A DNA stretch of 63,223 bases, counting the filler. It is 4 parts of 4 records of this genome, joined end to end, with 100 filler letters (N's around TTAATTAATTAA, not from the genome) between each part and the next. Parts side by side here need not be neighbours in the genome. Positions count along the whole stretch, not along the records: positions 1 to 12,522 come from SRR31147125_17266; 3 more parts are not named here. One strand, written 5' to 3'. The position numbers and the translations under genes are program-made. The notes below the pieces were generated by a model. That model saw only the letters and a list, made by a program, of their open reading frames with translations, was not told the origin of the DNA and ran no database searches. Below are positions 3,353-35,610 of the stretch, piece by piece. The number at the start of each line of letters is the position of its first letter. The first letter of the stretch is position 1.

Positions 3353-4174
3353 TTATTTTACACTAAACTTTATCTCTCCTAATGGACCAAAATTAGCAAC
3401 ATAACTTCCCGGTTTACCTGGAAGCATTTTTCCTAATGAACCTGTAATCAGAAGTTCACCGGGCTTAACTACCCAACCATTTTTTATTGTATTATTAACA
3501 AGCCAAAGTAATGCTTTCCACTGGTCACCTAGCGCATCTGATCCTTTACCAACGTTGATTAGAGCATCATTCCATCTTAGAGTAACATCAATTGAATTAA
3601 CATCTGTATCCTTATTAAATTCTGGGCCCATAATGTAGTGAGAAGAAGCCACATTTGCTGCGATTAAATCTATACCTTGTATTTTTTTTACATCCTCGAA
3701 ACCAATATCAGGCATTTCAATTACAGGGACAACAGCTTTGATCAGGCCCTTCAACTCTTCCACATCTTTGACCGGTTTTTTAATTACCTTCTCAGCAATA
3801 AAACCAATCTCTGTTTCAAGCATTAACTTTCCAATTTTTGAGCTATCAACTGTCCCACCAGGCTTAATCATGCCTTTCTCAAAAAGTACACCACTTGCAG
3901 GTTCAGTTACAGCAAACTTCTTTTGACTAGCTGTGGAAGTAAGCCCCGCTTTGAAACCTAGAATCTTGCACTTCTTCAGACGTTTTTTGACATAGGCTGT
4001 TTGGACATCATAAGCCATCTTTTCATTAAAATCAGGTCGAGTCTCAGAAATCAGAGGGATAGGTTTTCCACCCTCGTATGCCTTATAAATAATATTTGCA
4101 TCTTTTGACTTATCACTACAGGAGACCATCGCGGTCATTAGAAGAACTAGAAAAATACCAACTATACGTTTCAT
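3353..4174 (-). CDS. FAH-superfamily 2-keto-4-pentenoate hydratase-like protein with lipoprotein signal
   Basis: AYDVQ, GFKAGLTS, ETEIGF, ITGSLG motifs; start reset to 4174 (GGAGG RBS; MKRIVGIFLVLLMTAMVS-C). Confidence 0.8.
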   Translation of the reverse strand: MKRIVGIFLVLLMTAMVSCSDKSKDANIIYKAYEGGKPIPLISETRPDFNEKMAYDVQTAYVKKRLKKCKILGFKAGLTSTASQKKFAVTEPASGVLFEKGMIKPGGTVDSSKIGKLMLETEIGFIAEKVIKKPVKDVEELKGLIKAVVPVIEMPDIGFEDVKKIQGIDLIAANVASSHYIMGPEFNKDTDVNSIDVTLRWNDALINVGKGSDALGDQWKALLWLVNNTIKNGWVVKPGELLITGSLGKMLPGKPGSYVANFGPLGEIKFSVK

Positions 4175-4453
4175 AAAACAACCTCCCTGATTAGTTTCCA
4201 TCATTTCTACTATTCAAGGAGGAATTGTCAATAGATTGTTGTTTGTTTGGGACTTCTACTCACCCTCAGCTGCCTCAGGAAGCTCCTTAAGCCAGACGAT
4301 TGGCATTCCGCTTCACTTCTCATACTATTACCGGCTCTAAAAAACAGACAATATTGCTAATTTAGAAAGGTAAAGCAATGAATTAACACCACCGATTTTT
4401 CTTGTAATATCAGATATTTATGCTATAAGCGCTCCAAAAAGGGGGACAATTCT

Positions 4454-5932
4454 ATGAAGTTTTTTTCCGTATTTTTTTCTCTACTTCTTCTAAGCCTAGC
4501 GGCGTGCTCAAACCCATCAATTCCACTAACAGCTCCGAGACTAACAAATAATCCGAGTCAGGATGTTATTGTCACTAGCGCAAAACCGCTCTTCTCTTTT
4601 TTCAATGCCAAAGGTGGAAACGGAGATAGAACATACGAAATTGAAATCGATACGACTTCGACTTTTAACAGCAATGAAATTATTAAGATCAAAGATGTAC
4701 CAGAAAAAAACAAGCACATCTCTAGCAAACTGATCGAGAACGAGGCAATCAAGTTTCAAGATGGCAAAAGATACTATTGGCGAGTTCGTGCTGTTGACTC
4801 GAAGGGCAACAAAGGCCCGTGGAGCTCATCGCGATTCTATTTTGATAGCAAAGCGGATGACAGTTTCATGAATTTGGTTCGTGTTAACGTTGATGAAATT
4901 CAAGTATCAAGTGGCTATAACAAGAAAAACATAATTGATCTTGATGATCCTGGACAATCGACTTTTTGGCAATCAACACCACCAGGAAGCGACAATCAGT
5001 GGGTCTATTTTGATCTTGGTCGCACTCAAAATATCTCAAGAATTTGGATGCTGTCAAATCCATCTAGCGCAGATGGATGGTTAAAAGATTTTGTATGGCA
5101 AATGAGCCATGATGGGAAGAGCTGGAAAGATATTTCGGGAACTGAGATTAGCAATAACGACACGTTCCGAAACATCATAAACTTTTCCCCTGTCTCAACA
5201 AGATATCTAAGACTCTTCATAAAAGACTGGCATGGTTATGCAGTACAAATAAATGCAATAACAATCTACTCTCCTGGTAAACCTCCTGTACCAGAAGCTC
5301 CAGAGGGCAACTACGTTCTAGTCGTAGGAGATCAGCAAAATGGCTACACTTTTACAGAACTTTCACAATTTATTGAGGGTTTAGATCTTAGACTAAAGAC
5401 ATTAACAGTCCCCCACTATGAAATTTCCTTAGACATGGTTAACAAGTTGAAGAACAAACCCGTTGCAATTATATTAAGTGGAAACAACGCAAACTATCCG
5501 AACTTACCAATGTATGAGTACAACGGTGTCTACGAGTTAATTAGAGAATCCGACATTCCAATCCTAGGAATCTGCTGCGGCCACCAACAACTGGCAATGG
5601 CATATGGCTACACATACGCACACTCAATGGGCTGGGACGACATAACCGCGATGGATAAACTTAGAACAATGACAGAGATTAAGATTCTTAAAGACGATCC
5701 TGTCTTCGAAGGAATCTCTAATCCATTTATCGCAGTTGAGATACATGGATGGGCAGTTGCAAATACGGCAGGGATTTATGACGTGCTTGCAAAATCGACA
5801 TATATTCAGTCGATGAAAAACAAAACAAAGGATATATACGGTGAACAGTTTCATGCTGAAATCAAGGTCCCATACAATAAAGGAACACCTTATCTAGTAA
5901 ATTTTTTAAAAATGGCTTTAAACAAGAAATAA
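4454..5932 (+). CDS. Lipoprotein: FN3-like + F5/8 type C (discoidin) + class I glutamine amidotransferase domain
   Basis: Lipobox LAA-C; YYWRVRAVD..GPWS (FN3-like); QWVYFDLG..SHDGKSW..TRYLRL (discoidin); PILGICCGHQ and QFHAE (Cys-His-Glu triad). Confidence 0.85.
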   Translation: MKFFSVFFSLLLLSLAACSNPSIPLTAPRLTNNPSQDVIVTSAKPLFSFFNAKGGNGDRTYEIEIDTTSTFNSNEIIKIKDVPEKNKHISSKLIENEAIKFQDGKRYYWRVRAVDSKGNKGPWSSSRFYFDSKADDSFMNLVRVNVDEIQVSSGYNKKNIIDLDDPGQSTFWQSTPPGSDNQWVYFDLGRTQNISRIWMLSNPSSADGWLKDFVWQMSHDGKSWKDISGTEISNNDTFRNIINFSPVSTRYLRLFIKDWHGYAVQINAITIYSPGKPPVPEAPEGNYVLVVGDQQNGYTFTELSQFIEGLDLRLKTLTVPHYEISLDMVNKLKNKPVAIILSGNNANYPNLPMYEYNGVYELIRESDIPILGICCGHQQLAMAYGYTYAHSMGWDDITAMDKLRTMTEIKILKDDPVFEGISNPFIAVEIHGWAVANTAGIYDVLAKSTYIQSMKNKTKDIYGEQFHAEIKVPYNKGTPYLVNFLKMALNKK

Positions 5933-5950
5933 TTACAATCGGGGGAAAAC

Positions 5951-7356
5951 ATGAACGGTAAACCTAAGCACTATCTTTCAGTCTTTGTTCTCGCAATGAT
6001 GAATGTAGCTGTAGTTATGAGCCTTCGCGGTCTACCCATCATGGCCAAAGAAGGTCTTCCAATGATCTTCTTTCTACTATTCGCATCTCTTCTATTTTTG
6101 GTTCCTGTGTCACTTGTCTCTGCAGAACTTGCAACAGGATGGCCTGAAGATGGTGGAGTCTATCGTTGGATAAAGGAAGCCTTCGGTTCAAACTGGGGCT
6201 TTACAGCAATCTGGCTGCAGTGGATTCAAAACGTAATATGGTATCCAACTGTTCTGGCCTTTGCCGCCGGTGCCCTCTCCTACCTCTTCATAGATCCATC
6301 ATTGGCAAACAGTAAGCTTTTCAATGTCACAACAATACTTATCGTCTACTGGGGGGCAACCTTTCTCAACTTCAGAGGAATGAAGACTTCAGGAAGACTC
6401 ACAACAGCGGGAGTTCTAGCCGGAACCATTTTCCCAGGCATTCTTATCATTGGACTTGGCGTTGCTTGGGTAGTTATGGGTAAGCCTATTGCGTTCGAAG
6501 CAACATCAACAAGTTGGCTCCCAGATTTTAGTAATTTTAGCTCAATCGCATTTCTTGCTGGAGTAGTTCTACTTTTTGCAGGAATGGAAGTTGGTGCAGT
6601 TCATGTTCAAGAACTGAAGAACCCAAAGGGTCAGTTCCCAAAGGCCGTTTTTCTTTCAATGTTTATTATTATTCTTGTCTTTACATTTGGCTCTTTGGCA
6701 ATCGCATCAGTACTCCCAGCAGATCAAATCAGTCTTAATGCTGGTATAATGCAAGCTTTCAAGGACATGCTTCACCTCTACAACCTAGACTTCTTACTAC
6801 CTATCCTTGGACTGCTTGCTGCATTTGGTGCAATTGGTGGTGTTGTTGCTTGGATTGCAGGACCTTCCAAAGGTCTTCTAGCAACAGCAAAATGTGGAGA
6901 CCTTCCACCACTTCTTCAAAAGGTTAATAAGAACGGTGTCCAAACTCACATACTTTGGATCCAAGGAATTATTGTAACCATAATTTCACTTTTATTTCTA
7001 CTAATGCCAAATGTAAGTAGTGCATATTTCCTTCTTACTGCACTAACAGCAATTCTATATCTAATTATGTATATAATGCTCTATCTCGCGGCAATCGTAC
7101 TCAGATTTAAAAAACCAGATGTTCACAGATCATACAAAGTCCCTGGTGGAAAGCTTGGGATGTGTCTTGTTGCCGGCCTAGGTATTGCCGCAGCTGTCTT
7201 TGCAATAGTTGTAGGATTTTTCCACCTTCGCAACTTAAAATTGGAAGCCCTGCATTTTATATTATCTTCCTAGCGGTAGGTATTATAATTTTCGTGGGAG
7301 CACCTTTAATAATTCATGAATTCAAAAAACCAAGCTGGATACCGAAAGATCAATAA
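5951..7356 (+). CDS. gadC: Glutamate/GABA antiporter (APC family), 1-nt frameshift near 7221
   Basis: VMSLRGLP, SAELAT, GGVYRW, FAGMEV, IAGPSKGLL motifs; C-terminus PPSQLKIGSPAFYIIFL...DQ lies in another frame; directly upstream of gadB. Confidence 0.88.
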
Positions 7357-7366
7357 AGGAGGATCT

Positions 7367-8767
7367 ATGTTACACAAAAAACATAATTTGAAAGATTTTA
7401 CAGATAGAGAACTACTATTATCACCAACCTTTGGTTCTAGGGCCTTACAAAACAAAGTCCCAAAGTTTAAAATACCTAAAGGCGAAATGATGCCCAGGAA
7501 TGCATATCAAATTGTTCATGACGAACTGATGCTTGATGGAAATGCCAGGCTTAACCTGGCAACATTTGTCACAACATGGATGGAACCCGAAGCTAAAAAA
7601 TTGATGTCTGAAACTTTTGATAAAAACATGATCGACAAGGATGAGTACCCACAAACAGCAGAACTTGAAATGCGTTGTGTTAACATTCTTTCAGACCTCT
7701 ATCATGCCCCAGACGGAGAAGCCTGTGGTTGTTCAACAACAGGGTCTAGCGAAGCTGTTATGCTTGGCGGAATGGCTTTAAAGTGGAAATGGAAAGAACG
7801 AATGAAAGCCAAGGGAAAACCAACAAACAAGCCAAACCTAGTTCTCGGAGTAGATGTTCAAGTCTGTTGGGATAAATTTTGTAGATATTGGGAAGTTGAG
7901 CCAAGATTTATCCCTATGAAAAAAGGTAAATATGGGATTACTCCAGAAGAAGTAATAGAGCTTTGCGACGAAAATACAATTGGCGTTTGTGCCATTCTAG
8001 GAACTACATTTACTGGCGAATATGAACCTATTAAAGAAATCAACAACGCACTGGATAAGTTCAACAAAAAGACAGGTTTTGAGATTCCAATCCATGTAGA
8101 TGCAGCAAGCGGTGGATTCATCGCTCCATTTCTGCAGCCAAAGTTAGAATGGGATTTCAGACTTAAATGGGTAAAATCAATAAATGTCTCAGGCCACAAA
8201 TTTGGGCTCGTCTATCCCGGTGTTGGCTGGGCTATATGGCGCGACTGGGATGAGCTCCCAGAAGATCTAGTTTTTCATGTTAATTATTTAGGTGGTGATA
8301 TGCCAACATTTGCCCTTAATTTTTCAAGACCAGGAAGCCAGATCGTTGCTCAGTATTATAACTTCTTAAGATTAGGATTTGATGGTTATTACAGAATTCA
8401 AAAAGCATGTCAGGACGTTGCACTCTACTTGTCTGACAAGTTAGAAAAAACAGGCATCTTTGAATGTCTTACCAAAGGCAAGGATATTCCTGTCTTTGCA
8501 TTTAAAATTAGAGATGATGCTGATGTAAATTTTTCGGTTTTTGATGTCTCTGAGATGCTTCGACATAGAGGATGGCTACTTCCCGCATACACCCTTCCTG
8601 AAAATTGTGAAGATATTGCAGTATTAAGAATTGTTGTAAAAGAGGGGTTTAGTCATGATCTTGCAGACCTTCTTTTAGAAGATATTGATAGAGTTATAAA
8701 GCATTTTGAAACACAACCGGGGCATAAAGCCAGAACTCAAAAAGGAAAAGGCAAACTGCGCTGTTAA
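7367..8767 (+). CDS. gadB: Glutamate decarboxylase (PLP-dependent)
   Basis: NLATFVTTWMEPEA, KNMIDKDEYPQTAE, HVDAASGGF, SGHK (PLP Lys); start reset to ATG 7367 after AGGAGG. Confidence 0.97.
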   Translation: MLHKKHNLKDFTDRELLLSPTFGSRALQNKVPKFKIPKGEMMPRNAYQIVHDELMLDGNARLNLATFVTTWMEPEAKKLMSETFDKNMIDKDEYPQTAELEMRCVNILSDLYHAPDGEACGCSTTGSSEAVMLGGMALKWKWKERMKAKGKPTNKPNLVLGVDVQVCWDKFCRYWEVEPRFIPMKKGKYGITPEEVIELCDENTIGVCAILGTTFTGEYEPIKEINNALDKFNKKTGFEIPIHVDAASGGFIAPFLQPKLEWDFRLKWVKSINVSGHKFGLVYPGVGWAIWRDWDELPEDLVFHVNYLGGDMPTFALNFSRPGSQIVAQYYNFLRLGFDGYYRIQKACQDVALYLSDKLEKTGIFECLTKGKDIPVFAFKIRDDADVNFSVFDVSEMLRHRGWLLPAYTLPENCEDIAVLRIVVKEGFSHDLADLLLEDIDRVIKHFETQPGHKARTQKGKGKLRC

Positions 8768-8791
8768 TTTTTTGAAAAGATTTTTAAAGAG

Positions 8792-8823
8792 GCCCTACAC
8801 CATAAATGATGTAGGGCTTTTTT
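8792..8823 (+). terminator. Intrinsic terminator of the gad operon
   Basis: GCCCTACA/TGTAGGGC stem followed by T6. Confidence 0.75.
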
Positions 8824-8991
8824 ATAAATATTATCTGACATATATTACACTCCAAAGTCCAAGAATCACATTAGTCGCAAGAAGAGATATAAACCTATAA
8901 TATCCTATAGTTAGATTGTCCTAAAATATAAACACCTATCCCCCTATTACTTAATCTGATAAAATATCTTTTATATATCTGGGGGTGGTTA

Positions 8992-10260
8992 ATGAAATTA
9001 AAAAGCTGTTATCTCATATTGTTCATAATATCCTTTTTTATAGCATGCGGTGGAAGCTCAAATTCAGTAAATGACGCTGATGGCGAATTATCCGGTGCTG
9101 AATTCAGAGCAATTACAAATACTGCAGAGATCTTGGCCGGAATAGAATCTGATGGAGCATCAGGCACTCTTATTTTGGTGAATAATTCTAACTCCTCAAT
9201 AGAATCACCAACACTCTCTTTCTATGACTTAGAATCAGGAGAGGCCACAGATGTAGAAACTAGCAGCTCATCATTAGCAGCCGGCGAATCAGAGACATAT
9301 GAAATAGATTTTCCAGACAACTCTGCACCTGAAGACACGGATTTAATAGGTCTATCACTGGGTGATGATGAGGCTGCTATATTTATGACAAGCAGCGCCT
9401 ACTCAGAACTATCTCCTGCAATAACAGATCCTGATATTAGTGCTTCATTTTCAACAGCTCTTGTACCGCTTTCAGGTACTTGGAATTTTGAGATGGATCT
9501 GGCCACTTCTTATCTATCAGGGAGTAATTGTCCCAGCGAAGCCTTAAGCTTAACATCAAGTGGCAGCTCTTCATTGTATGTATCTCCGAATGGAAATACG
9601 GCATCATGGATTATTGAAACAAATGGATTATCGCTAAGCCGGACACCATTTCAAAACACATATACAACCCCTACATATACTTTCGAAGTTGAAACTGAAG
9701 ATGAAAGCATAGCCTTTGGGACCAATTATTGGGAACTAACACCAAGTTCTTCTACAGCAATGTCTGGAACCTTAGAATGGGATAACAATCAAGGCTGTTC
9801 AGCTTCATACCCTGTCACCATGACTCGCCAAGCAACCGCTAGCCCATTAATTTTCGAACTCTGCGAAGGGATGTGGTCTATTAATTACTCAATATCAACA
9901 TGTGGAGGATCCCCAGTCGTACCTGAAGCTCTCGGTGCTATGCCCAGTGGAAGCGGAATACTAGAAATAGTGAATAACCCTATAACTGATGAACCCATGC
10001 ACCTCTCTTTCGATACGTTGTCTGGATACCAAATACTGCCTCGTATAGGAAATACAAACATATATGGAACAGGTATTTCAAATATGTCGCTCGGTTATAC
10101 CTACGATGTTTTTGCGAATCCAATAAACCTAATAGGTGGATATCAGATGACTGCCATATCAGAATCTATGATTGTGGGAACAGTCAACATCCAAGGATTT
10201 GGAATCATACCATGTAATGGAATCGCTATTTTTACAATGGAATCTCTCTCTGGATGTTAA
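8992..10260 (+). CDS. Hypothetical acidic Ser/Thr-rich lipoprotein
   Basis: Lipobox-like FIA-CGGS; 422 aa, beta-rich, several Cys. Confidence 0.7.
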   Translation: MKLKSCYLILFIISFFIACGGSSNSVNDADGELSGAEFRAITNTAEILAGIESDGASGTLILVNNSNSSIESPTLSFYDLESGEATDVETSSSSLAAGESETYEIDFPDNSAPEDTDLIGLSLGDDEAAIFMTSSAYSELSPAITDPDISASFSTALVPLSGTWNFEMDLATSYLSGSNCPSEALSLTSSGSSSLYVSPNGNTASWIIETNGLSLSRTPFQNTYTTPTYTFEVETEDESIAFGTNYWELTPSSSTAMSGTLEWDNNQGCSASYPVTMTRQATASPLIFELCEGMWSINYSISTCGGSPVVPEALGAMPSGSGILEIVNNPITDEPMHLSFDTLSGYQILPRIGNTNIYGTGISNMSLGYTYDVFANPINLIGGYQMTAISESMIVGTVNIQGFGIIPCNGIAIFTMESLSGC

Positions 10261-10487
10261 TCTGAATCGCCTTTTGCCTTTTCAGCAATCTTACCAATCC
10301 AAACAGTTGCAACAACAGCTATAACTGTAACTATCAAGGCATATGTAAGCATTGCTTGAATACCGCTCTGCTCTCCAAAATATTTTTTAAATATAGCCTG
10401 AATCGCACTATTCCAAGCTAATGCAGCAACAAGTCCAAAAGATGCTGTTATAAGCGTGGATAGTTTTTCAATAATTGCCGATTTCAT
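10257..10487 (-). CDS. DUF5654-like small membrane protein
   Basis: LITASFGLVAALAWNSAIQ...YALIVTVIAV motif; start reset to 10487 after GGGGG RBS. Confidence 0.8.
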   Translation of the reverse strand: MKSAIIEKLSTLITASFGLVAALAWNSAIQAIFKKYFGEQSGIQAMLTYALIVTVIAVVATVWIGKIAEKAKGDSD

Positions 10488-10593
10488 AAAATCCCCCTTT
10501 TGCATAAGTCAAAATGAGGTCAGATTAGTCCCATATTTTTTGACTTTTGTCTATATAGATGGTAACTATGTCAAATCAAAAAAAGGGGGAAGT

Positions 10594-11127
10594 ATGAAAA
10601 AGTTAAGTTTAGCAGTAGTTCTTTTCTTTGCGTTGGGAATGATTGCATCCTGTGGAGGAAGCAGTGGAAGTGGTGGCGGTGGAAGCACATGTGGCCATTC
10701 AGACACGACCAGTCCATTCGATGACTTAAGCGGAACCTGGAATCTCTATATGACCATGTCGGAAATTGATTGCCCAATTACGCCCAGCTGGATCAGTTGC
10801 ACACTCACATTTGTTCAAGCAGCAGGTTCAAATGAGATTAGCGTATCTGGAACATGTACTAGCGATCTAACTTCCGGCATCACTGTCAACAACATGCCAG
10901 CATGGCTTGCTGGATCAACCCTGTACTGGGAAGGAGTTGTTGCATTTTCTGACGGTACATATAGCGAATCAGATACTATCCCATGCTCAAATGTAAACAT
11001 GACTTCTAGTTCACAATCTGCAACGTTTTCAGGCATTACAATTTCCGTATCATATAACAATGATGGAACGGTTGGCACCTGCTCATCTTATGTTTCGAGT
11101 GGCGATTTCACAAAAACAAGCAGCTAA
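10594..11127 (+). CDS. Hypothetical Ser/Thr-rich lipoprotein
   Basis: Start reset to ATG 10594 (GGGGGA RBS); MKKLSLAVVLFFALGMIAS-CGGSSGSGGGG. Confidence 0.75.
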   Translation: MKKLSLAVVLFFALGMIASCGGSSGSGGGGSTCGHSDTTSPFDDLSGTWNLYMTMSEIDCPITPSWISCTLTFVQAAGSNEISVSGTCTSDLTSGITVNNMPAWLAGSTLYWEGVVAFSDGTYSESDTIPCSNVNMTSSSQSATFSGITISVSYNNDGTVGTCSSYVSSGDFTKTSS

Positions 11128-15555: not shown

Positions 15556-16794
15556 TTAATTAAATATAGGTCCTTCTTGAGGTTGATATGTAGGCATCAA
15601 ATTTCTAATAGATGGCCAACCGTCATCTGACCATATAAGTGGATCCATCATCACTTGTCTTCCTTGATGTGTTATACCATCAATCGTTTTATACGCATGA
15701 TAAATCATCCAGTATGTACCTGCATCATCAATAATGATTGAGTTATGTCCAGGACCTATCATTCTAGAAGAACTTTGAATAACTATTTTCCCACGATAAC
15801 CTGACAAAACATCTTGACCTTGATCATCGATATATGGGCCTAAAGGATTTTGTGATCTTGACACTCGAACATGATAATTACTGTTCAACCCTTCACAACA
15901 ACTGCCACTTGATAAAAATAAATAATAATACCCATCTTTAAATATGACATATTGTCCTTCATATGTATCACCGGCCCATGGTGTAGATGTATCATAACCT
16001 GCAATATGCACTTTATGTTCAACTGCATAGCTTAAACCATTTAATAATTGAAGCCCGTCTTCAGAAAGTTCAACACCATAGTTTCCTCGCATCGAACCCC
16101 ATATCATATAAACATGATTATCTTGTCCTATAAATACGGTAGGATCAATTGAATTATTGACGCCAATTTCTTCCGAATTAAACAATTTCCCATGATCTGT
16201 CCATGGTCCTTCAGGATGGTCGGCAGATGCTATACCTATACCGGGATTAGGATCACCCCAAGTTGATAGAGAATAATAAAGCAAAAACTTATCATTGATT
16301 TTTACAATATCTGGTGCCCAAATGTTTGCATTCAGTGTTCCCCAAGTGGGTTTATCAATGACAGTCCCTAAATTTTCCCAAGAAATCATATCATTAGATT
16401 TTAGTAAAACACCACCTGTAACATAAATATAAAATGCATCTTCATACTGAATAATATGAGGGTCCGCACCAGTTCCACCTTCATAGATAGGATTTGTATA
16501 TAACGCTACATCTAAAGACCATTTAGCATATAATGTCATTTGATCATTTATGATTGAATCCTCTGTAAGCACTTCTTGCAATGATGCATCCAAATACCAT
16601 CCCCTAAATGTGTGTCCTTCATATGTTGGTGTCGACAAATATTCAAGAACATGATGTTTGTCAACATTTATATTTTCAATGCCACTTCCTCCATTTAATT
16701 CAAAATAAATGGTAACATTATTATTTTCAGTCTGGCAACCCTGTAAAGTTGTTATTGACATAGCGATTAAAATTAAACACATTATTTTTTTCAT
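15556..16794 (-). CDS. GH43 glycosidase lipoprotein with N-terminal InlB B-repeat-like domain
   Basis: Start reset to MKKIMCL (LQG-C lipobox); FELNGG..PTYEGHTFRGWY..LYAKW repeat; ADP, WAPD, SIDP, YEG, GPGHNS. Confidence 0.9.
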   Translation of the reverse strand: MKKIMCLILIAMSITTLQGCQTENNNVTIYFELNGGSGIENINVDKHHVLEYLSTPTYEGHTFRGWYLDASLQEVLTEDSIINDQMTLYAKWSLDVALYTNPIYEGGTGADPHIIQYEDAFYIYVTGGVLLKSNDMISWENLGTVIDKPTWGTLNANIWAPDIVKINDKFLLYYSLSTWGDPNPGIGIASADHPEGPWTDHGKLFNSEEIGVNNSIDPTVFIGQDNHVYMIWGSMRGNYGVELSEDGLQLLNGLSYAVEHKVHIAGYDTSTPWAGDTYEGQYVIFKDGYYYLFLSSGSCCEGLNSNYHVRVSRSQNPLGPYIDDQGQDVLSGYRGKIVIQSSSRMIGPGHNSIIIDDAGTYWMIYHAYKTIDGITHQGRQVMMDPLIWSDDGWPSIRNLMPTYQPQEGPIFN

Positions 16795-16798
16795 TAAA

Positions 16799-17722
16799 TT
16801 ATCCTTTGAATGAAGCATCGCCAATGACAATCTTTTGATTCTTAATATACATCTTATCAATGACAAGTTGTCGATCTTCACTAGGATCTTTCATATTTGA
16901 ATGAATATGATAAGCTATATAAAGTTGTCCCTTGCCATCAGTAAATACACTATTATGTCCAGGACCCGAAATGACTTGATCAATTGATTTTAATATAGGA
17001 TTTTGTTCATATTTCACAAAAGGTCCCATAGGTGATTGGCTCACCGCATATCCTATAGCATAAGTAGTTGCTGCATAAAAACCTGAAGAATACATCATGT
17101 AATATAGATCATCTTGTTTAATCACAAATGCCCCTTCCGTCCATCTCCATGGCCCTGTAATACTCTCCCATGCTTGCTCGGGTTTAATGACTAATTTAGG
17201 TTCTCCAATTAAACGCGTTAATGTTTTGTCAATTTCAACAGCATATATATGACTCTCATGTCGTTCTTCATACACATTTTCTGAGCAATCTTTTGAATAA
17301 TAAAAGTATATTTTCCCATCTTGATCAAAAAATACATGTCCGTCAATCACAGCGAACCCAAAATCAAACATAGGTTTTTTATCAAAGACATCAATAAATG
17401 GTCCCTCTGGGTGATCAGCATATGCAACACCAATACGTAAACTATTATTTTCTTTTAATCTCGCTGAATAGTGCATGATATATTTGCCTTGGTGATAAAC
17501 GACTTCTGGTGCCCAATAATCCGTTTCCCCAAAACTTTTATGATTTTTTTTATATGCTTGACTGACTAGTTCCCATTGTTTCATATCTTTAGATTTCCAA
17601 CAATTAAAGCCTTCAATTGTTCCACCTGTTTGTTTAAATGATGTTGCATATAAATAATAACTATCTTTAAATCTTATGATATAAGGATCACCGATTTTTT
17701 TTAATCCTACTACATGTCTCAT
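16799..17722 (-). CDS. GH43 glycosidase, cytoplasmic
   Basis: GDPY, YWAPEV, VIDGH, TEGAF, GPGHNS; no signal peptide. Confidence 0.92.
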   Translation of the reverse strand: MRHVVGLKKIGDPYIIRFKDSYYLYATSFKQTGGTIEGFNCWKSKDMKQWELVSQAYKKNHKSFGETDYWAPEVVYHQGKYIMHYSARLKENNSLRIGVAYADHPEGPFIDVFDKKPMFDFGFAVIDGHVFFDQDGKIYFYYSKDCSENVYEERHESHIYAVEIDKTLTRLIGEPKLVIKPEQAWESITGPWRWTEGAFVIKQDDLYYMMYSSGFYAATTYAIGYAVSQSPMGPFVKYEQNPILKSIDQVISGPGHNSVFTDGKGQLYIAYHIHSNMKDPSEDRQLVIDKMYIKNQKIVIGDASFKG

Positions 17723-17759
17723 AATTTTCCTCCGTGTAAATGTTGTTTGAAATTCTTAC

Positions 17760-18602
17760 TTATTTAATACCTGTTCTTGATACACCTTCTATGATGTGAT
17801 TTTGAAGTATAAAGTATATGATCATGACAGGAATGATTGATACAATTGCTGCACTCATCGATAAACCATAATCATAATTATACGTACCTAAAATAGTTGA
17901 TAATCCATAAGGGAGTGTCCACTTGCTTGGTTCGCTACCTGCTAAAATAATTTGTGGCCATAAATAATCATTGTAATTACCTATAAATGCGAATAATCCT
18001 GCGACAATTACTGCTGATTTAGATAATGGTAATACAACTCTAAAATATATCCCAAAATTACCCAAGCCATCTATTTTAGCCGCTTCTATTAAGTCTTTGG
18101 GTACGTCATTAAAAAACTGTCTCATTAAAAATAAGCCAAAAACACCACCGAGACCAGGAATGATTAGCGCGAGCCATGAATTAAACCATCCAAAATCTAT
18201 AACCATTGTTAATAATGGTACAAGATTAATGACCGCTGGAATCATTGTTGTCCCAATTAAAAACCAAAATATAATATTTCTACCTTTAAACTTTAATATT
18301 GAAAACGCATATGCTGCAAAAGATGCTACGACTAAATAAAGAAGGGTATGAATACTTGCAATGAAAAAACTATTCCATAACCAACGCAATACCGGCGTAT
18401 CTGCGCGTTCAAATAATACTTTATAATTTTCTATGGTAAATGCTTTTGGAATCAGACCAATCGGATTATCTGAAATCTCAGTCATTGATTTTAATGATGT
18501 TGCGAGTCCCCAAATAATAGGCATCATCCATAAAATAGAAATTACACATAAAATGATAAAACTGATTGTTTTTTTATTTTTGAATATTGTCTTCATGCGC
18601 AT
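17760..18602 (-). CDS. Carbohydrate ABC transporter permease (MalG-like)
   Basis: LMRQFF..VPKDLIEAAKIDG EAA loop. Confidence 0.95.
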   Translation of the reverse strand: MRMKTIFKNKKTISFIILCVISILWMMPIIWGLATSLKSMTEISDNPIGLIPKAFTIENYKVLFERADTPVLRWLWNSFFIASIHTLLYLVVASFAAYAFSILKFKGRNIIFWFLIGTTMIPAVINLVPLLTMVIDFGWFNSWLALIIPGLGGVFGLFLMRQFFNDVPKDLIEAAKIDGLGNFGIYFRVVLPLSKSAVIVAGLFAFIGNYNDYLWPQIILAGSEPSKWTLPYGLSTILGTYNYDYGLSMSAAIVSIIPVMIIYFILQNHIIEGVSRTGIK

Positions 18603-18606
18603 GGTC

Positions 18607-19530
18607 TTAGTCCTTCTTCCTTAAGATTATTGATTGTCCAATAGAAATTGCAATCATGATTAATCCTAACAACAATGACATTGTTGTTGCAATACCAGGT
18701 TGTGCATTACTGCCAGCTGCAAATTGTCTAATGTACATCATAATAACTGTGGTTGATTTATCCGGACCACCTTGCGTTAATAAATCTGGTTGACCATAAA
18801 TATTAAATGATGCTAATAATGTCATAATACCAACAATTAATAACTGTGGCGCTAACATCGGTATTGTGACACGCATAAATATTTGAGTGCTATTTGCACC
18901 ATCAATTCTTGCTGCTTCATATAATGTGCGATCAATATTTTTCATGCCCGCACCAAGAATCACCATGTTCGTACCCATGGTCCACCAAATTGTGACAACA
19001 ATAATAGAAATCCATGCCCATGGTTGTGTCTGTAAAAATGCGATTTCATCTATGCCAAAATGGACAAGTAAGCTATTTATAAATCCACCATTTGTATAAA
19101 ACTGCCAACGCCAAATTAATATGACAGCAGAAATTGATAAAACAGTGGGTAAAAAAAGTATTGTTCTAAATATTTTATATCCAATAGGTTCCATATCTAT
19201 GAGTTTAGCGATAATCAATGGGATACCTATAAGTAAAGGCACTGCAAAAACAACAAATATCACAGTATTTTTTAAACCACTCCAAAAATATATGTAATAT
19301 ATACTATCTTGATTGAATAAAACATTAATATAGTTTTCAAAACCTACAAATCTTGTCAATTGTGGTTGAAACATGTTCCAATCAAAAAAACTAATTAATA
19401 TGCCATAAAAGAACGGAATGATAAAAAACACTGTAAATGCCGTGATAAATGGGGCTAGAAAAACCCATGCGGATAAATTATCCTTTAATATTCTTTTTCT
19501 TTTTTGTTTTGATACAAGTTGTTTTGACAT
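18607..19530 (-). CDS. Carbohydrate ABC transporter permease (MalF-like)
   Basis: FVGFENY, LYEAARIDGA. Confidence 0.95.
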   Translation of the reverse strand: MSKQLVSKQKRKRILKDNLSAWVFLAPFITAFTVFFIIPFFYGILISFFDWNMFQPQLTRFVGFENYINVLFNQDSIYYIYFWSGLKNTVIFVVFAVPLLIGIPLIIAKLIDMEPIGYKIFRTILFLPTVLSISAVILIWRWQFYTNGGFINSLLVHFGIDEIAFLQTQPWAWISIIVVTIWWTMGTNMVILGAGMKNIDRTLYEAARIDGANSTQIFMRVTIPMLAPQLLIVGIMTLLASFNIYGQPDLLTQGGPDKSTTVIMMYIRQFAAGSNAQPGIATTMSLLLGLIMIAISIGQSIILRKKD

Positions 19531-19548
19531 CGCACTAAAGTCTCCTTT

Positions 19549-20889
19549 TTATCCTTTAACTGATGCTACAAGTAATGCAGCTTCATCCACAGCATCATTC
19601 AATAAATTCATTAATTTTTCATCTGTATAATCTTCATTCACATTTGAAGGTGAAATTGACAATGCTTGTGTGACATATGCATAAGAAACTCCGAAAACTT
19701 CTTGATAATATGGTGTTTGTGCACTCATTCTAAAGTTTGAAGTATCCCCAAAATCATGAATATATGGAAGATCAATATAATTTTGATTTTCTCTGGCGAT
19801 ATTACTTGCTGGTATTTGACCTGCTGTCGCCCATTCATAACTATGATCACCCATCCATTTTACAAACGTCATCATTGCTTCTTGTTTCGCTTCTGATGGG
19901 ATTTTTTGTGTTTTTGGAAAAACAAATGTATGAGAACGTGCATATATCTCATTTTTATTTTCTGTATCTTCATCTGTAAACATCGCACTCATAGGGATAA
20001 CACCAAATGAATTACCTACACTAGAGTCCATAATTGCATTTAGCATCCATGACCCTTGAACATGAAATAATGCATTACCTTGTTGAAATGCAAATAAATC
20101 TTGGTCAACACTCATTGTATTTGGCGATAATTGGTATGTATGTATTAAATCTGCAACAGCTTTAAGTGCAGCTACACCAGCATCATTATTAAAGCTAGGT
20201 GTTTCTGCATCAGAAATTTCATTTCCACCATTTTGATACAATGCTGTCGTAAATAACCATTCAGATGGCCATGCTGTTGAAATAGGAAAACCATAAAAAT
20301 TCGCATTGTTTTCACCATCTTGCACAGTAGTTGCTGCTTGAATAAGCTCTTGACGTGTTGTTGGTACATCTAAATTATATTTTTCAAGTAGGTCTGAATT
20401 ATAATATATACCTACTGTATGAAGATCAAAAGGGATACCATAAATATCATCATCTATGATTAATGATTCCATAACACTATCAACATAATCATCTGTAGAT
20501 ATATCTGAATTTGAGATATAGTCATCAATTGATATCACTAGATCTTTTTCAACATAACCAGGTACACGATGTGAATGCATAATTGCTATATCTGGCCCTC
20601 TACCCATTGGTACTAATAAGTCAATGTTTTGATAGTGTGTTGTTTCATTGACATATGTTTCTGAAACTTGAATTTCGCCTTCATATTCTTCATTGAAATC
20701 TCTAATTAAACTGCGCATTTCAACACCATCAGCACCAGTTATTGGGTTCCAAAATGTAATTGGAATTACTTCACCTTCTTCTGGTTCTGGTTCTACAATT
20801 GGATCTGGATCTGACTGACTAAAGCGACTACATCCTACCAATAAAGTCAGTGTGATCATTAATACAGTTACACTTAATAACTTTTTCAT
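19549..20889 (-). CDS. Sugar ABC transporter substrate-binding lipoprotein
   Basis: LVG-C lipobox; ITFWNPITGADG, PDIAIMH, YGIPFD, YYNSDLLEK. Confidence 0.92.
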   Translation of the reverse strand: MKKLLSVTVLMITLTLLVGCSRFSQSDPDPIVEPEPEEGEVIPITFWNPITGADGVEMRSLIRDFNEEYEGEIQVSETYVNETTHYQNIDLLVPMGRGPDIAIMHSHRVPGYVEKDLVISIDDYISNSDISTDDYVDSVMESLIIDDDIYGIPFDLHTVGIYYNSDLLEKYNLDVPTTRQELIQAATTVQDGENNANFYGFPISTAWPSEWLFTTALYQNGGNEISDAETPSFNNDAGVAALKAVADLIHTYQLSPNTMSVDQDLFAFQQGNALFHVQGSWMLNAIMDSSVGNSFGVIPMSAMFTDEDTENKNEIYARSHTFVFPKTQKIPSEAKQEAMMTFVKWMGDHSYEWATAGQIPASNIARENQNYIDLPYIHDFGDTSNFRMSAQTPYYQEVFGVSYAYVTQALSISPSNVNEDYTDEKLMNLLNDAVDEAALLVASVKG

Positions 20890-20901
20890 TTCTTTTCTCC
20901 T

Positions 20902-22178
20902 TTAGTTGAATATTGTTGGTTTTTCTGCTGAGCCATTTGAGGTTGATAGTCCTTCAACTGATGGCCATCCATTATCATCCCAAATCAATTTATCAATTAA
21001 TAAACTTCTCCGATTTGAATTACCAACTTTATCTGGCTGTGATAAATCATATCCATGATAGACTAGCCAATAATCACCAGCATCATCTATGGCAATACTA
21101 TTGTGTCCAACGCCTGTAAACTGGCTACTAGGCATCACAACTTGATAGCCAACTTGGCTTTGTGTCATTGAATTTCCTGCATGATCCACATATGGACCTA
21201 GCGGACTAGTCGATCTTCCAACGACAACATTATATGTTGAGTTCACACCACTACAACATGATCCAGATGATAAAAACATATAATAATATCCATCTTTATA
21301 AATCACATATGCGCCTTCGTATGTATTAATATTAAACGGTAGACTTGTATCTTCACCAGCAAGTAATACTTTATCACTTGCAGCTTGTGCAATGTCACCT
21401 GCTAAACTTAATCCATCGCTGGCAAGTTCAATACCATAAATACCTCTAAAACTTCCCCAGACCATATATACTTTGCCATCCTGACCAGTAAATACAGCAG
21501 GATCAATAGAATTATTGACACCTATTTCACTTGATAAAAATAACTTGCCTTGATCTGTCCATGGTCCTGCTGGATGATCTGCCGTTGCAAAACCAATACC
21601 TGGATTTTCATCACCCCATAGAGATAATGAATAATATAAAATAAATGTATCATTAATTTTTACAATATCAGGGGCCCATAGACCAGCATTTAATGTTCCC
21701 CATGCCGGTCTATTCACACCTGTAAAAACGCTGCCTGTATATGTCCAATCTATCAAATTTGTTGATTGAATAATCGGACCATATTTTACACCAAACTCAT
21801 CATCCCATACACCATCATCTTGTGTACCATAAGCATAATATATGCCATCGTGACGAATAATGGAAGGATCAGCTAAAATAGGTTCCCAAACTGGATTATC
21901 ATATACTTGGCTTCCCCATACAGCTTTTAGAATAAATGCTTCATTAATCGGCGTGTCAAAATCAAAAGTTTCTCCATTATATTGCCACTCAACAAATACA
22001 TAACCATCTCTGATTGGAATTTCTGGAATGTCTAATATTTCATTTTCTTTGATGTTTTGTGATGCTACCGGTGAACCACCATTTGCATCAAATACCACTT
22101 TGTAAATTGTCTTTTGTCCACAAGCCATTAAAAGAAAGCTTGTGATGACGATTGTGACAACTAAATAAACTTTTTCAT
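20902..22178 (-). CDS. GH43 glycosidase lipoprotein with InlB B-repeat-like domain; 1-nt frameshift just after the start
   Basis: GGAGG RBS then ATG 22178; one extra A in the A5 run (22171-22175) gives MKKVYLVVTIVITSFLLMA-C; ADP, WAPD, SIDP, YEG motifs. Confidence 0.88.
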
Positions 22179-22192
22179 GAACTACCTCCGTT

Positions 22193-24661
22193 TTATGATG
22201 ATAAATCAGTGATGTCGCTGACAATAAAATAATCAATATCAACATTATGTGCATCAACACCTTCGCCTGCTGCACCTAACATAACAACTAATTTAGCGTT
22301 TGTTGTATCTATAGCATCAGTCACTTCAATCGTATATGTAATGACTGTCCAAGTATCAGCTTCTAATTGACTTTCTGTTCTTCCATCAGTTGCAATACCT
22401 GAGTATCCATTTGCTGCATCTTCAATCCATGCTCGAATTGTTCTTGCAACAGATGATTTAACACGTACATCTATTTGATATGTATGTCCTGCTTCTAATG
22501 TAATGCCTGAATTTTGATATAATTGATGATCCCAAGGATTACCACCAGGTGCTGCATCAAATGTCACTGTAACAACTCCATCAGTAATGCTTGCATCTAT
22601 GCGATCATATACCCATGAGCCTTGTTGATCAAAATTTTCTTCTTCAGCTTTAAATCTTGGACCAACAACTACAGTTCTTGTTTGCATATATACAGTACCA
22701 TTTGCATTTTCTGCAGCATATACAACTTCATAACTACCTGTTGTATAAATATCAAATCCATCATTATCATTAATGATTAAACTACTTGATATATCTTCTC
22801 CTAAACTATCTAATACAACAACATCTGTCAATAAATCAAATGTTGAATCACTATGTAAGACTGTCACACTTTCCATACCACTCCATACGAATGCATCATC
22901 GGCTGCTTCATTCACAGTCACAGTGATTGTTTTTTCTGCTTCATTGCCCGCTAAATCAATCGCTGAATAAGTAAGTGTGTATTCACCTGGTGTATTTAAG
23001 TCAACTAAGTTTTCTTTTACTGTAACATTTACTTCTTTTGAAATATCATCAGTTGCATATACATCTGCTAACCAATTAGGTTCTGCATCACCAGCTGTCA
23101 ACTCAAGATCTAGAGCACCTTCAATAGTTGGCACTTGATTATCTTCATAAAGATAGACTTGGAATGTATCAACTGTAACTGTTATATCATTTGCTGACGA
23201 TCCGTTTTTACCAAGTAACACCGCTACTTTTGCAGTTAAATCACTGTCTGCAGTAAATATGAGTTCAAACTCTTGATATTCAGTTGTAAGCAATGGATTG
23301 ATAGGATCTACAAGATTTCTAAATCCTGCACTCGGTTGATTGACTTCAATAGTCACTGTTCTTTCAGCTGAAGCTTTAATTCTAATAAATACACGATATG
23401 TTTGTCCAGCAGTTAATTCTGAAGATTCTTGTTGCAATTGAATATGCCATCCTGCTGTACTTTCGTTTGTTACTAAGATAGAAACAGTCCCATCACCATT
23501 ATCCGTGAAACTTGCTTCACCAGTCCCATCAGTTTGATTGACATCTGCAACCCAGCCTAACATACCACCATCGAAATCACCATTAACAGTGCTATGTGGT
23601 CCTTCTTTTGCAATATAATAATCAAATATTCTATTTTCTATCGATACATGACCATTTTCGTGTACGTATACATATTGAATGATTGCATTGGCACCAGCAT
23701 CTCTTACTTCTTTTGGAATTGCACCTAATATCATGAGATCATCAGTCACATCAGTTTCGCCTAATGTAGCTGAGACATCTTCAGTCAAATCAAGTGTATA
23801 AGACCCACTAGCTGCTGATACAACTTCATCAAGACCACTAAATGTAACACTTTGATCAATATTAACTTCTTCAATATAAATATCTTCTATGCTTACCATA
23901 TGAGGTTCTTCACTATTGACTACTAAGTCACCATCTTGTTGATAACCTAAATATATCACAACTTTAACATTACTATAATTTTTATCCGCTGTATAATACA
24001 ACTCATATGTCGAACCTTCTGCTGACAACGGCATACTTAGTGTACCCGGCATTAACATACTAAATCCATCATTTGGATCTTCAAAACCAACTGATAACGC
24101 ATGGCCTTGTGGACTTGATGCATTCACAGTCACTTTGTATGTCGTATTTTCTTTAAGAATAATATTACTTTGATATAACTGTAATGCCCACCATGCAGAG
24201 CCTGAATTTGAAATCGATACATTTGCTTTACCGTCTTCAAAACTTACATCAAAATCGCCACCTGGTTCATCGATTGTCCAGCCATAAGTATTATTCATCT
24301 CAAAATCATTGTTTGCAAGATTGTGCCCAATAGTGACTGAAAATGATTTTGTTTGTTCTTCAGTGACACCCGTTGAATTTTCAACTTGATATGTTACTGT
24401 ATAAACATCTGAAAAATGAGTGCTGAATCCACCGTCATCAGTGATTTCGATTTCACTTGTTAAATCACCATCAATGGAATCAGTAACCATCACACCTTCT
24501 AGTAAATCAACAACGTCCCCACGTACAATGGACTCATCTTCTAAACCTGACCAAGTTAACTCGCCATCATCAGATGGTTCAGGTTCTACAATTTCACTTC
24601 CGCAAGCTACTAATAGTGTAGCAAGTGCTAAAAACGCGAACATCATAAATATTTTTTTCAT
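22193..24661 (-). CDS. Surface lipoprotein with about three CBM4/9-like and about three DUF5011/Ig-like modules, no evident catalytic domain
   Basis: LVA-C lipobox; CBM-like WWALQLYQ, GWHIQLQQ, PWDHQLYQ; Ig-like DLLEGV..TDSIDGDLT and PGEYTLTYSAIDLAGN. Confidence 0.8.
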   Translation of the reverse strand: MKKIFMMFAFLALATLLVACGSEIVEPEPSDDGELTWSGLEDESIVRGDVVDLLEGVMVTDSIDGDLTSEIEITDDGGFSTHFSDVYTVTYQVENSTGVTEEQTKSFSVTIGHNLANNDFEMNNTYGWTIDEPGGDFDVSFEDGKANVSISNSGSAWWALQLYQSNIILKENTTYKVTVNASSPQGHALSVGFEDPNDGFSMLMPGTLSMPLSAEGSTYELYYTADKNYSNVKVVIYLGYQQDGDLVVNSEEPHMVSIEDIYIEEVNIDQSVTFSGLDEVVSAASGSYTLDLTEDVSATLGETDVTDDLMILGAIPKEVRDAGANAIIQYVYVHENGHVSIENRIFDYYIAKEGPHSTVNGDFDGGMLGWVADVNQTDGTGEASFTDNGDGTVSILVTNESTAGWHIQLQQESSELTAGQTYRVFIRIKASAERTVTIEVNQPSAGFRNLVDPINPLLTTEYQEFELIFTADSDLTAKVAVLLGKNGSSANDITVTVDTFQVYLYEDNQVPTIEGALDLELTAGDAEPNWLADVYATDDISKEVNVTVKENLVDLNTPGEYTLTYSAIDLAGNEAEKTITVTVNEAADDAFVWSGMESVTVLHSDSTFDLLTDVVVLDSLGEDISSSLIINDNDGFDIYTTGSYEVVYAAENANGTVYMQTRTVVVGPRFKAEEENFDQQGSWVYDRIDASITDGVVTVTFDAAPGGNPWDHQLYQNSGITLEAGHTYQIDVRVKSSVARTIRAWIEDAANGYSGIATDGRTESQLEADTWTVITYTIEVTDAIDTTNAKLVVMLGAAGEGVDAHNVDIDYFIVSDITDLSS

Positions 24662-24760: not shown

Positions 24761-25749
24761 CTATGTAGTTTTTCTGACCATCAATTTTGGTTCAAATATT
24801 TGAACTTTTAATGGTGTATCATATTGATATATTCTTGCCAATAAAAACTGTACTGCTTTTCTTGTGATTGCTTCATTCCCATTATGGATAGTTGTAAGTT
24901 GTGTTGGAATACTGAGTCTATGTTCAATGTCATCATAGCCAACAACTGCAATATCATGAGGGACATTTAGCCCGAGGTTTTCTATGGTTGTAATTGCTTC
25001 ATATGCCATGACATCATTAAAACAAAATATTGCTGTAACTTTATTTTGAACACATGATTTTACAAGATGAGCAATATCATCTTTGCGATGCTCTAAAAAT
25101 TTAATGTTTCCATCTTTCAACGCAACGCCATGATTTAAGCAACTTTTTTTAATCCTTCAAGCCTTTTTGTTGAACATTTGATATCACTTGGTGCACCAAT
25201 ATATGCAATATTCGTGTGGCCTTTATCAATAAGATGCTCTCCCACTAAATAACCACCTTTAACATCATTTGTAAACACTGAATCAATACCTAAGTCATCA
25301 CTTTCTCTACCAACAGTAACCATAGGGATTTGAATTTTTTTTGCATAATCAGCCACTTCTTTTGTTGGTTTTAAAAATGTGATGATACCATCAATTCTTC
25401 GTGATATCAACCGATTAAGTGCTTCCAAATCAAATTGTGCACGATCATTCGATCCTGTAAAAATCATAATGTCGAAGTTCTCTTCATTAAGAACCTTGTG
25501 AATGACCTCTGTCATAATCATGAAATATGGATTGGCTATATTGTCAAAAACAACACCTATCGTCTTTGTATATCCATTCCGTAAACTTTGCGCTACAAAA
25601 TCTGGGACATATCCCATATCTTTGGCTAATTGATTAATATATGCTTTTGTCGATTCTGATATGTCATCTTTGTCTTTTAATGCACGTGAGACTGTATTAA
25701 TAGACATACCAGCTTTTTTAGCAATATCCTTTAATAGTACTTTCGCCAT
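24761..25749 (-). CDS. LacI family transcriptional regulator, 1-nt frameshift at 25144-25150
   Basis: LKDIAKKAGMSINTVSRAL HTH; C-terminal AIFCFND and VVGYDD in another frame; one more A joins them (GLKKSCLNHG). Confidence 0.9.
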
Positions 25750-35497: not shown

Positions 35498-35610
35498 TAC
35501 TAAGCGGATAATACCGACCGAAATACGGACACAAATTTTGATGTGCGTATTTTACACTGAGTCGTTATTCGAAAAATCATACTAGAGAGCATAGTCTTGT
35601 GGAGGATAAA

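Follow-up and report, generated by a model that had tools for sequence, protein, structure and literature searches.

A gadC-gadB operon led by a putative exported, glutaminase-like amidotransferase protein in an Acholeplasmataceae-like bacterium

As a module for acid resistance and energy conservation the Gad system is textbook knowledge, and to our knowledge glutamine enters it at one point only, through the cytoplasmic serine glutaminase GlsA/YbaS. Here we describe a gad operon lying at positions 4454-8767 of a 63,223-nucleotide stretch of DNA (four parts of four records of one genome joined end to end, filler included; hereafter the window), whose first gene, called X below, encodes a protein built around a class I glutamine amidotransferase (GATase) domain, and we propose that this cassette is a Gad system with a putative, non-homologous and exported glutaminase-like component. 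Of the described systems, AR2_Q of E. coli, Brucella microti and L. reuteri combines GlsA/YbaS with GadC (and GadB) (PMC6250119). The X cassette resembles AR2_Q in that its antiporter and decarboxylase families are identical, in that the gene for the glutamine-hydrolysing enzyme (putatively so for X) is found before, between or after gadB and gadC, and in its predicted net chemistry, which would run from glutamine to glutamate + NH3 and on to gamma-aminobutyrate (GABA) + CO2. It differs from AR2_Q in that X has the Cys-His-Glu fold of the class I GATases and is non-homologous to the serine-dependent GlsA (PF04960), in that X possesses export signals together with immunoglobulin (Ig)-like and CBM32 modules, and in that the GadC clade of the window falls below the NCBIfam equivalog cut-offs. 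Given these export signals, deamidation would take place outside the membrane, with GadC importing glutamate and not glutamine.

For such a scheme of deamidating outside and importing glutamate, the closest functional precedent would be, by analogy, the periplasmic GGT of Campylobacter and Helicobacter; in C. jejuni it makes glutamate out of glutamine and glutathione, and this is then imported by a transporter (PMC4456614). Similar to what we propose for X, the GGT of C. jejuni and H. pylori is an extracytoplasmic enzyme that feeds a dedicated glutamate importer, and its NH3 helps in acid. Unlike X, however, GGT is an unrelated, autoprocessed N-terminal nucleophile (Ntn) hydrolase that is not encoded with gadBC, and the glutamate derived from it enters via PEB1 or GltS and not via a decarboxylation-coupled antiporter. 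In its fold and catalytic triad X is like GMP synthetase subunit A, TrpG and PabA, although these are cytoplasmic and pass their NH3 to a synthase partner that switches them on, whereas X is exported (by its predicted signals), has no partner and lies far under the equivalog cut-offs. PuuD/SpuA and the eukaryotic gamma-glutamyl hydrolase (GGH; peptidase C26), the latter secreted or lysosomal, use the GATase fold purely as a hydrolase, as we propose for X, which differs from them in its marginal C26 match and lower structural similarity (both detailed below); we know of no hydrolase of this type with Ig and CBM32 modules or in a Gad operon. A preliminary description of this DNA, made from the sequence alone, had stated that no gad system of this architecture was known to have been described, and our literature search likewise found no paper on it, the supplementary gad-arrangement tables of PMC6250119, which possibly list other neighbours, being outside the scope of that search.

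In the window X, gadC and gadB are three co-directional ORFs (open reading frames) on the + strand, so that decarboxylase and antiporter genes stand adjacent and in the same direction, as in a Gad operon. Its parts are as follows.

4454-5932, + strand: gene X, 492 residues, a lipoprotein-type three-domain protein and the first gene of the operon (from the ORF, its translation, Pfam, relatives and AlphaFold2)
5951-7356, + strand: gadC-type amino-acid antiporter gene, frame-broken at the T-run 7217-7221 (Pfam AA_permease_2, TIGR03813)
7367-8767, + strand: gadB, glutamate decarboxylase gene (TIGR01788), with its likely start at ATG 7367 behind AGGAGG at 7357-7362
8780-8829, + strand: intrinsic terminator, a hairpin with a U-run behind it (RNA fold -22.8 kcal/mol, z -5.0)

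That X belongs with the gad genes is suggested by its relatives. A search of 5.8 billion clustered proteins returned 272 of them, and the best 120, named only as 'discoidin domain-containing protein' or 'GMP synthase-like amidotransferase', are 52-72% identical to X over 78-100% of its length, come from across phyla and in all cases possess both the discoidin and GATase domains. In a library clustered at 50% identity the three-domain form amounts to about a dozen representatives, the remaining strong matches being fragments or giant Ig-repeat proteins; by sequence, this is a compact and uncharacterised family. Species-representative genomes yielded 82 loci, of which 60 were kept (X at a coverage of at least 60% and an identity of at least 40%); the other 22 are distant GATase-only matches or partial copies, two of which (L061 and L063 in our numbering of loci) are themselves gad-linked. 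Among the 60 X loci, gadC is present in 39, gadB in 29 and at least one of them in 40. The preliminary description had held that homologues unlinked to decarboxylase or antiporter genes would speak against a Gad role; what we found is linkage that recurs across many phyla and in several gene orders (X-gadC-gadB, X-gadB-gadC, gadC-gadB-X and a divergent gadC<>X). In the published account glsA is found in five arrangements around gadBC, with variable positions (PMC6250119), and the position of X around the gad genes is just as variable.

Linked copies are found in every major clade of the X tree, that is, in Omnitrophota, Chlamydiota, Patescibacteria, Bacteroidota, Thermodesulfobacteriota, Planctomycetota, Ignavibacteriota and the clade of the window, and the linkage labels change 9 times on this tree against a shuffled mean of 16.9, with none of 500 shuffles as low. 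Moreover, X is associated with two types of GadC, since in Bacteroidota its partner is an E. coli-type GadC set apart by a deep split (branch length 1.51; best model TIGR00910) and in the others a TIGR03813-like GadC. The pairwise identities of X and GadC are correlated (r = 0.52; 0 of 2000 permutations as high), a value to which shared ancestry contributes. Where X and gadC occur without a local gadB, as in five Patescibacteria genomes, glutamate decarboxylase (GAD) is encoded elsewhere in four. Within Bacteroidota we sampled 201 genomes, in which GAD is present in 4 and X in 1 (the seed genome being counted in both), numbers too small for statistics on X versus glsA.

The X protein of the window is composed of an N-terminal signal, two accessory domains and a catalytic domain, all on the + strand.

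4454-4507, + strand: signal peptide with lipobox L-A-A-C, residues 1-18, in which Cys18 is the predicted lipidated residue (pattern in the translation)
4535-4849, + strand: Ig-like/FN3-like domain, residues 28-132 (Pfam Ig_Rha78A_N; all-beta in the model)
4871-5278, + strand: discoidin/CBM32 domain, residues 140-275 (Pfam F5_F8_type_C; structure match 4a41)
5312-5920, + strand: class I glutamine amidotransferase domain, residues 287-489 (Pfam GATase; structure match 8gr1_A)
5573-5575, 5852-5854 and 5858-5860, + strand: codons of the triad Cys374, His467 and Glu469 (alignment, motifs)

The lipoprotein with FN3-like, F5/8 type C and class I amidotransferase domains that had been described beforehand is borne out by a lipobox and by three Pfam matches above their cut-offs, namely Ig_Rha78A_N at residues 36-126 (31.5 bits, cut-off 27.4), F5_F8_type_C at 152-262 (68.1 bits, cut-off 28.2) and GATase (PF00117) at 314-484 (60.6 bits, cut-off 22.8). 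The Cys-His-Glu triad is likewise intact, with GICCGHQ at residues 372-378 and QFHAE at 465-469, and Cys374, His467 and Glu469 are invariant in 30/30 aligned members of the family. The nucleophile and His/Glu motifs were found in 55 of the 60 loci and in 115 of 120 proteins; four of the five motif-incomplete loci are truncated, three of them at a contig end, and in the fifth, L058, the His/Glu motif as searched is missing. No synthase domain was found in X, in its neighbours in the window or in the neighbours of 20 other loci, in keeping with the earlier observation that X has no synthase partner, whether fused or adjacent. X also had no match to the serine-dependent glutaminase family PF04960 at E <= 0.01, and the NCBIfam equivalog PRK00758 scored 74 bits versus a cut-off of 198. 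Invariant stretches specific to the X family include an S-G-N-N sequence and an 8-residue insertion behind the nucleophile helix.

An AlphaFold2 model of X was confident throughout (predicted local distance difference test score (pLDDT) 91.3, predicted template modelling score (pTM) 0.88) and bears out the GATase fold; because the model is confident as a whole, it suggests that X forms one rigid unit. The modelled GATase domain superimposes on the GATase subunit of M. jannaschii GMP synthetase (8gr1_A) with a Z of 23.5 and a root-mean-square deviation (rmsd) of 2.1 Å over 182/188 residues at 26% identity (VIA-align), and on TrpG and PabA with Z 21.7-22.3, the glutamine-using subunits overall giving Z 21.6-23.5 at 22-28% identity. 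The gamma-glutamyl-polyamine hydrolase SpuA matches with Z 18.3 at 17-18% identity. For the CBM32 domain the matches are galactose-binding CBM32 modules, with 4a41 aligning at a VIA-align Z of 18.9 and an rmsd of 1.6 Å over 127 residues. Mean pairwise identities in our alignment of the family (alignment A1) are 54% for the Ig, 59% for the CBM32 and 65% for the GATase domain, so that the three are similarly constrained, and this high conservation suggests that the Ig-CBM32 platform is more than a variable glycan anchor. It may take the place of the synthase by which glutaminase domains of this kind are normally switched on. When the complex of GadC and mature X from locus L059 was predicted (alignments A3 and A2), the score was 0.00 against a mark of 0.32, which speaks neither for nor against binding.

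The predicted location of X follows from its N-terminus, which begins with M-K, continues in a hydrophobic run and ends in the lipobox at Cys18, and which by pattern has the charged N-terminus, hydrophobic core and [LVI][ASTVI][GAS]C motif of a bacterial lipoprotein. A hydrophobic N-terminus is found, again by pattern, in 95 of 121 family proteins (36 with a lipobox and 59 without), and about half of the remaining 26 are clearly truncated; three Patescibacteria copies (L030, L040 and L062) carry an N-terminal membrane anchor. The preliminary description had placed X 'outside the inner membrane', which does not suit the window, since its host is an Acholeplasmataceae-like monoderm (see below) and the lipoprotein would therefore face outwards on the one membrane of the cell, beside GadC. 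In 7 Omnitrophota loci (L001, L007, L009, L010, L016, L023 and L042) we observe a gene for an OprB-family porin directly upstream of X on the same strand, the porins being 55-67% identical to that of L023, and in these diderm carriers porin-X-gad is a four-gene cassette.

Further support, albeit modest, for the replacement of GlsA/YbaS by X comes from the absence of glsA. PF04960 was found in 0/12 genomes that hold both X and gad genes, whereas it is present in 1/3 X-less, GAD-positive Bacteroidota genomes and in 2/4 GAD-positive named control genomes. A naive Fisher test of 0/12 versus 3/7 gives p of about 0.04, with the genomes being mostly incomplete metagenome-assembled genomes (MAGs) and non-independent. 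The exclusion of glsA that the preliminary description had anticipated is thus seen in this small sample. Among the 58 ORFs scanned in the window itself, no glutaminase was found.

From these data we think it fairly likely that X is an exported, membrane-anchored, putative ecto-glutaminase or gamma-glutamyl hydrolase that supplies GadC and GadB. On the outward side of the cell membrane (or in the periplasm of diderm carriers), X would convert glutamine or a gamma-glutamyl compound to glutamate and NH3 or an amine, GadC would import the resulting glutamate in exchange for GABA, and GadB would decarboxylate it in the cytoplasm with the consumption of one proton per turnover, while the released NH3 would add local buffering. 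X-gadC-gadB would in this way form one mobile cassette delivering pH relief and/or proton-motive force, in which X would take the slot held by the unrelated cytoplasmic glutaminase GlsA/YbaS in glutamine-dependent Gad systems. That the glutamate would probably be made outside the cell is suggested because an outward-facing enzyme precedes antiporter/decarboxylase genes in many unrelated bacteria. The preliminary description had arrived at a similar interpretation, which our results support in part.

Several points weigh against this proposal. Amidotransferase subunits, the closest structural relatives of X, hydrolyse glutamine poorly without their synthase partner, and very low external pH should inactivate a Cys-His-Glu triad, whereas YbaS is activated by acid. 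In 20 of the 60 loci the flanks, which reach up to 8 kb as far as the contig permits and are very short in four cases, contain no gad gene, and among five such unlinked genomes tested GAD is encoded elsewhere in three and nowhere in two (L012 and L045). In these gad-less settings X is directly followed by an MFS transporter in three Thermodesulfobacteriota-type loci (L012:9529-10824, L013:9594-10847 and L017:9495-10769) and by a DASS/CitMHS transporter with TrkA-C domains in another (L045:9637-12069), while the other gad-less loci have nothing telling behind X; since MFS or DASS/CitMHS genes follow X even there, the neighbour that recurs is a membrane transporter, as would suit an enzyme whose product is formed outside and can be imported. 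Moreover, six Patescibacteria/Saccharibacteria copies (L021, L022, L032, L037, L041 and L060), sisters of the three with a membrane anchor, lack a hydrophobic segment, and an in-frame stop lies 9-45 nt upstream of their start; as the stop leaves no room for a signal peptide, these copies look cytoplasmic, and in Patescibacteria/Saccharibacteria the side of the membrane on which the family works may vary. The glsA comparison itself rests on 12 mostly incomplete and phylogenetically clustered MAGs. Finally, the GadC of E. coli itself imports glutamine (PMC6250119), so that deamidation outside the cell is not obviously needed.

We also weighed several competing readings. X might be a gamma-glutamyl hydrolase acting on a conjugate or polymer and not on free glutamine, for example glutathione, gamma-glutamyl amines or peptides, poly-gamma-glutamate or a glycan-linked gamma-glutamyl compound, with the CBM32 and Ig domains recognising the carrier moiety and the glutamate still going to the transporter. 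This is in line with a weak Peptidase_C26 (PF07722) match in X (22.5 bits, cut-off 20.5), with the structural match to SpuA, with the 'carbohydrate-selective' nature of the OprB-family porin linked to X in Omnitrophota, and with the conservation of the CBM32 and Ig domains, which is on a level with that of the GATase domain and suggests a part in substrate recognition. However, the Peptidase_C26 match is marginal and lies beneath the stronger, overlapping GATase match, the GATase domain is nearer in both Z and identity to the glutamine-using subunits than to SpuA, and the very high conservation over phyla and habitats better suits a universal small substrate, so that we regard a conjugate as unlikely. 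A more specific version, the scavenging of folate polyglutamates, was considered for a copy located between dcd and thyX (L019) and rejected, as this context is unique among the 60 loci.

Alternatively, X could chiefly make ammonia for buffering the cell surface, in the manner of periplasmic GGT/asparaginase or urease, in which case its adjacency to gadBC would reflect shared acid-stress regulation. The periplasmic GGT/AnsA ammonia cycle of H. pylori is reported to aid acid resistance (PMC4456614), and the two of five unlinked genomes that hold X without any GAD would be accounted for; but the most constant neighbour of X is the antiporter gene gadC and not a regulator or gadB, and the gad-less loci again have a transporter neighbour (MFS or DASS), pointing to the uptake of an organic product, and we give this explanation little credence. 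It is also very improbable, in our view, that X does something unconnected with Gad, for example trim or modify a surface glycoconjugate or protein, and merely shares a mobile cassette with gadBC. The cassette is clearly mobile, as described below, and modules of the CBM32 and Ig kinds are typical of enzymes acting on glycans, yet such an explanation would leave unaccounted for the linkage through at least 4 gene orders and two GadC subtypes, the co-occurrence when the genes are apart and the absence of glsA. At the far end of our proposal, we can only speculate that the rigid Ig-CBM32 platform replaces the synthase, leaving the GATase permanently on and placing it at the outer mouth of a GadC-type antiporter. 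X would then be an ecto-subunit, much as the SLC3 heavy chains are for the SLC7 transporters of eukaryotes, and would channel glutamate from external glutamine into a proton pump driven by decarboxylation, while the cassette would serve small-genome, host-dependent bacteria (Acholeplasmataceae, Saccharibacteria, Omnitrophota and Chlamydiota) as a portable 'glutamine battery'; we consider this a long shot.

The remaining details of the operon agree in part with the preliminary description. All three genes are indeed + strand ORFs, but gadC is not a single ORF in the window as given, a point that the preliminary description had missed: its frame 1 stops at 7271-7273 (440 residues), and the +1 frame, with its stop at 7354-7356, encodes the conserved final transmembrane helix and the tail. 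Seven relatives read straight through the G-F-F-P-P-S-Q-L motif at which the window is one base short, in the T5 run 7217-7221, and a Logan contig independently assembled from a public run has one more T behind 7216, which restores the frame; this run contains 99% of the operon's sampled words at a depth of 17.9 and may be the source sample. Similar splits are seen in genes for a LacI-type regulator (24764-25749, - strand), butyrate kinase (35599-36674, + strand) and the essential replicative helicase DnaB (dnaB; 48798-50160, + strand), each of which is spread over two overlapping frames with matches to one and the same Pfam family. Because of the extra T in the independent contig and of these three genes split likewise, the gadC break is probably an assembly indel, one of scattered single-base indel errors in this assembly, and we rejected a real pseudogene or a programmed frameshift. 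The gap between X and gadC is exactly the 18 nt claimed (5933-5950, with the gadC start at ATG 5951), whereas the claimed 10 nt between gadC and gadB (7357-7366, containing the AGGAGG) holds only if the break in gadC is read through and gadB starts at ATG 7367, downstream of its first in-frame ATG (7316); the alignments with relatives begin at about residue 11-19 of the longer ORF.

As for the identity of the two gene products, that of gadC matches Pfam AA_permease_2 at 207 bits and is, by sequence, a GadC-like APC antiporter. It does not reach the GadC equivalog cut-off (window frame-1 product, TIGR03813, 487.6 bits versus 650), and neither does an intact close relative from L059 (546.2 bits versus 650), although the GadC models (TIGR03813, NF053662 and TIGR00910) outscore the tyrosine/tyramine antiporter model (340 bits); its substrate is deduced from the adjoining gadB. 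The gadB product is unambiguously a glutamate decarboxylase (TIGR01788, 709.5 bits versus a cut-off of 380.4). A single terminator stands behind gadB, as had been stated, with a hairpin within 8780-8829 that none of 200 shuffles folded as well; a simple consensus terminator scan missed it because that scan's rule allows loops of 3-8 nt. A consensus promoter scan gave 16 sites versus 13.3 expected and is hence not informative, one candidate site being TTAACA-16-TAATAT at 4383-4410, 44 nt ahead of X. A search for RNA data sets containing the operon listed none, which bears neither way on its expression. Rfam revealed no leader or riboswitch at gathering score in 4100-9100, the top match being Thr_leader (27.7 bits versus 55), which overlies the terminator. 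The operon is slightly GC-richer (0.39-0.43) than its surroundings (0.35-0.38).

The host of the window, judged from its sequence, is an Acholeplasmataceae-like monoderm relative of the Mollicutes: its ThrS shares 88% identity with that of a cultured Mycoplasmatota strain and 79-85% with those of Acholeplasmataceae MAGs, and the window additionally encodes DnaI, a class B sortase and butyrate kinase. The sortase gene (43996-44787, - strand; TIGR03064, 161.4 bits versus a cut-off of 153.75) would be unexpected if the host is wall-less like cultured Mollicutes. X and GAD are both absent from the five closest Acholeplasmataceae genomes, in which X had only weak matches, in frames of 515-526 residues taken as GMP synthase, and the flanking genes at 3353-4204 and 8992-10260 were not found in these genomes either. 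Since these relatives lack X and GAD, the sequences indicate that X-gadC-gadB was acquired horizontally as a unit. In trees, the window X clusters with those of Pseudomonadota, Myxococcota and Bdellovibrionota MAGs (Shimodaira-Hasegawa-like approximate likelihood ratio test (SH-aLRT) support 97), and the window GadC with Myxococcota and Bdellovibrionota copies (support 100/100). Directly past the terminator, two + strand ORFs (8992-10260, 422 residues; 10456-11127, 223 residues) have no Pfam/NCBIfam match and may belong to the same acquired region. Elsewhere in the window, a sugar-utilisation cluster on the - strand (15556-24661) contains three GH43 arabinanase-like genes (one with a Listeria-Bacteroides repeat), an ABC sugar transporter (binding protein and two permeases) and an 822-residue ORF without a family match. 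Among the other loci, a 2.2-kb contig binned as a Borrarchaeota archaeon carries an X member (L015) that is sister, on short branches, to an Aerophobetes copy (L014; SH-aLRT 100), for which a binning error is more likely than an archaeal carrier, and in an 'Alcaligenaceae' MAG an IMP dehydrogenase gene near X (L051:3715-6369) has an intein (Hint and intein-splicing domains).

If our proposal is true, X would be the first bacterial class I amidotransferase domain to serve as an exported, stand-alone hydrolase, and would provide a clear example of non-homologous replacement inside a well-studied pathway. The cassette would be a horizontally mobile unit of three genes (four with the porin) common to Omnitrophota, Patescibacteria, Chlamydiota, Bacteroidota, sulfate reducers and the Acholeplasmataceae-like host, and the X family would offer a natural experiment on how a GATase domain stays active without a synthase. 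Its carriers would turn external glutamine into membrane potential, NH3 and GABA, which could be significant for the energy and pH economy of non-respiring bacteria with tiny genomes.

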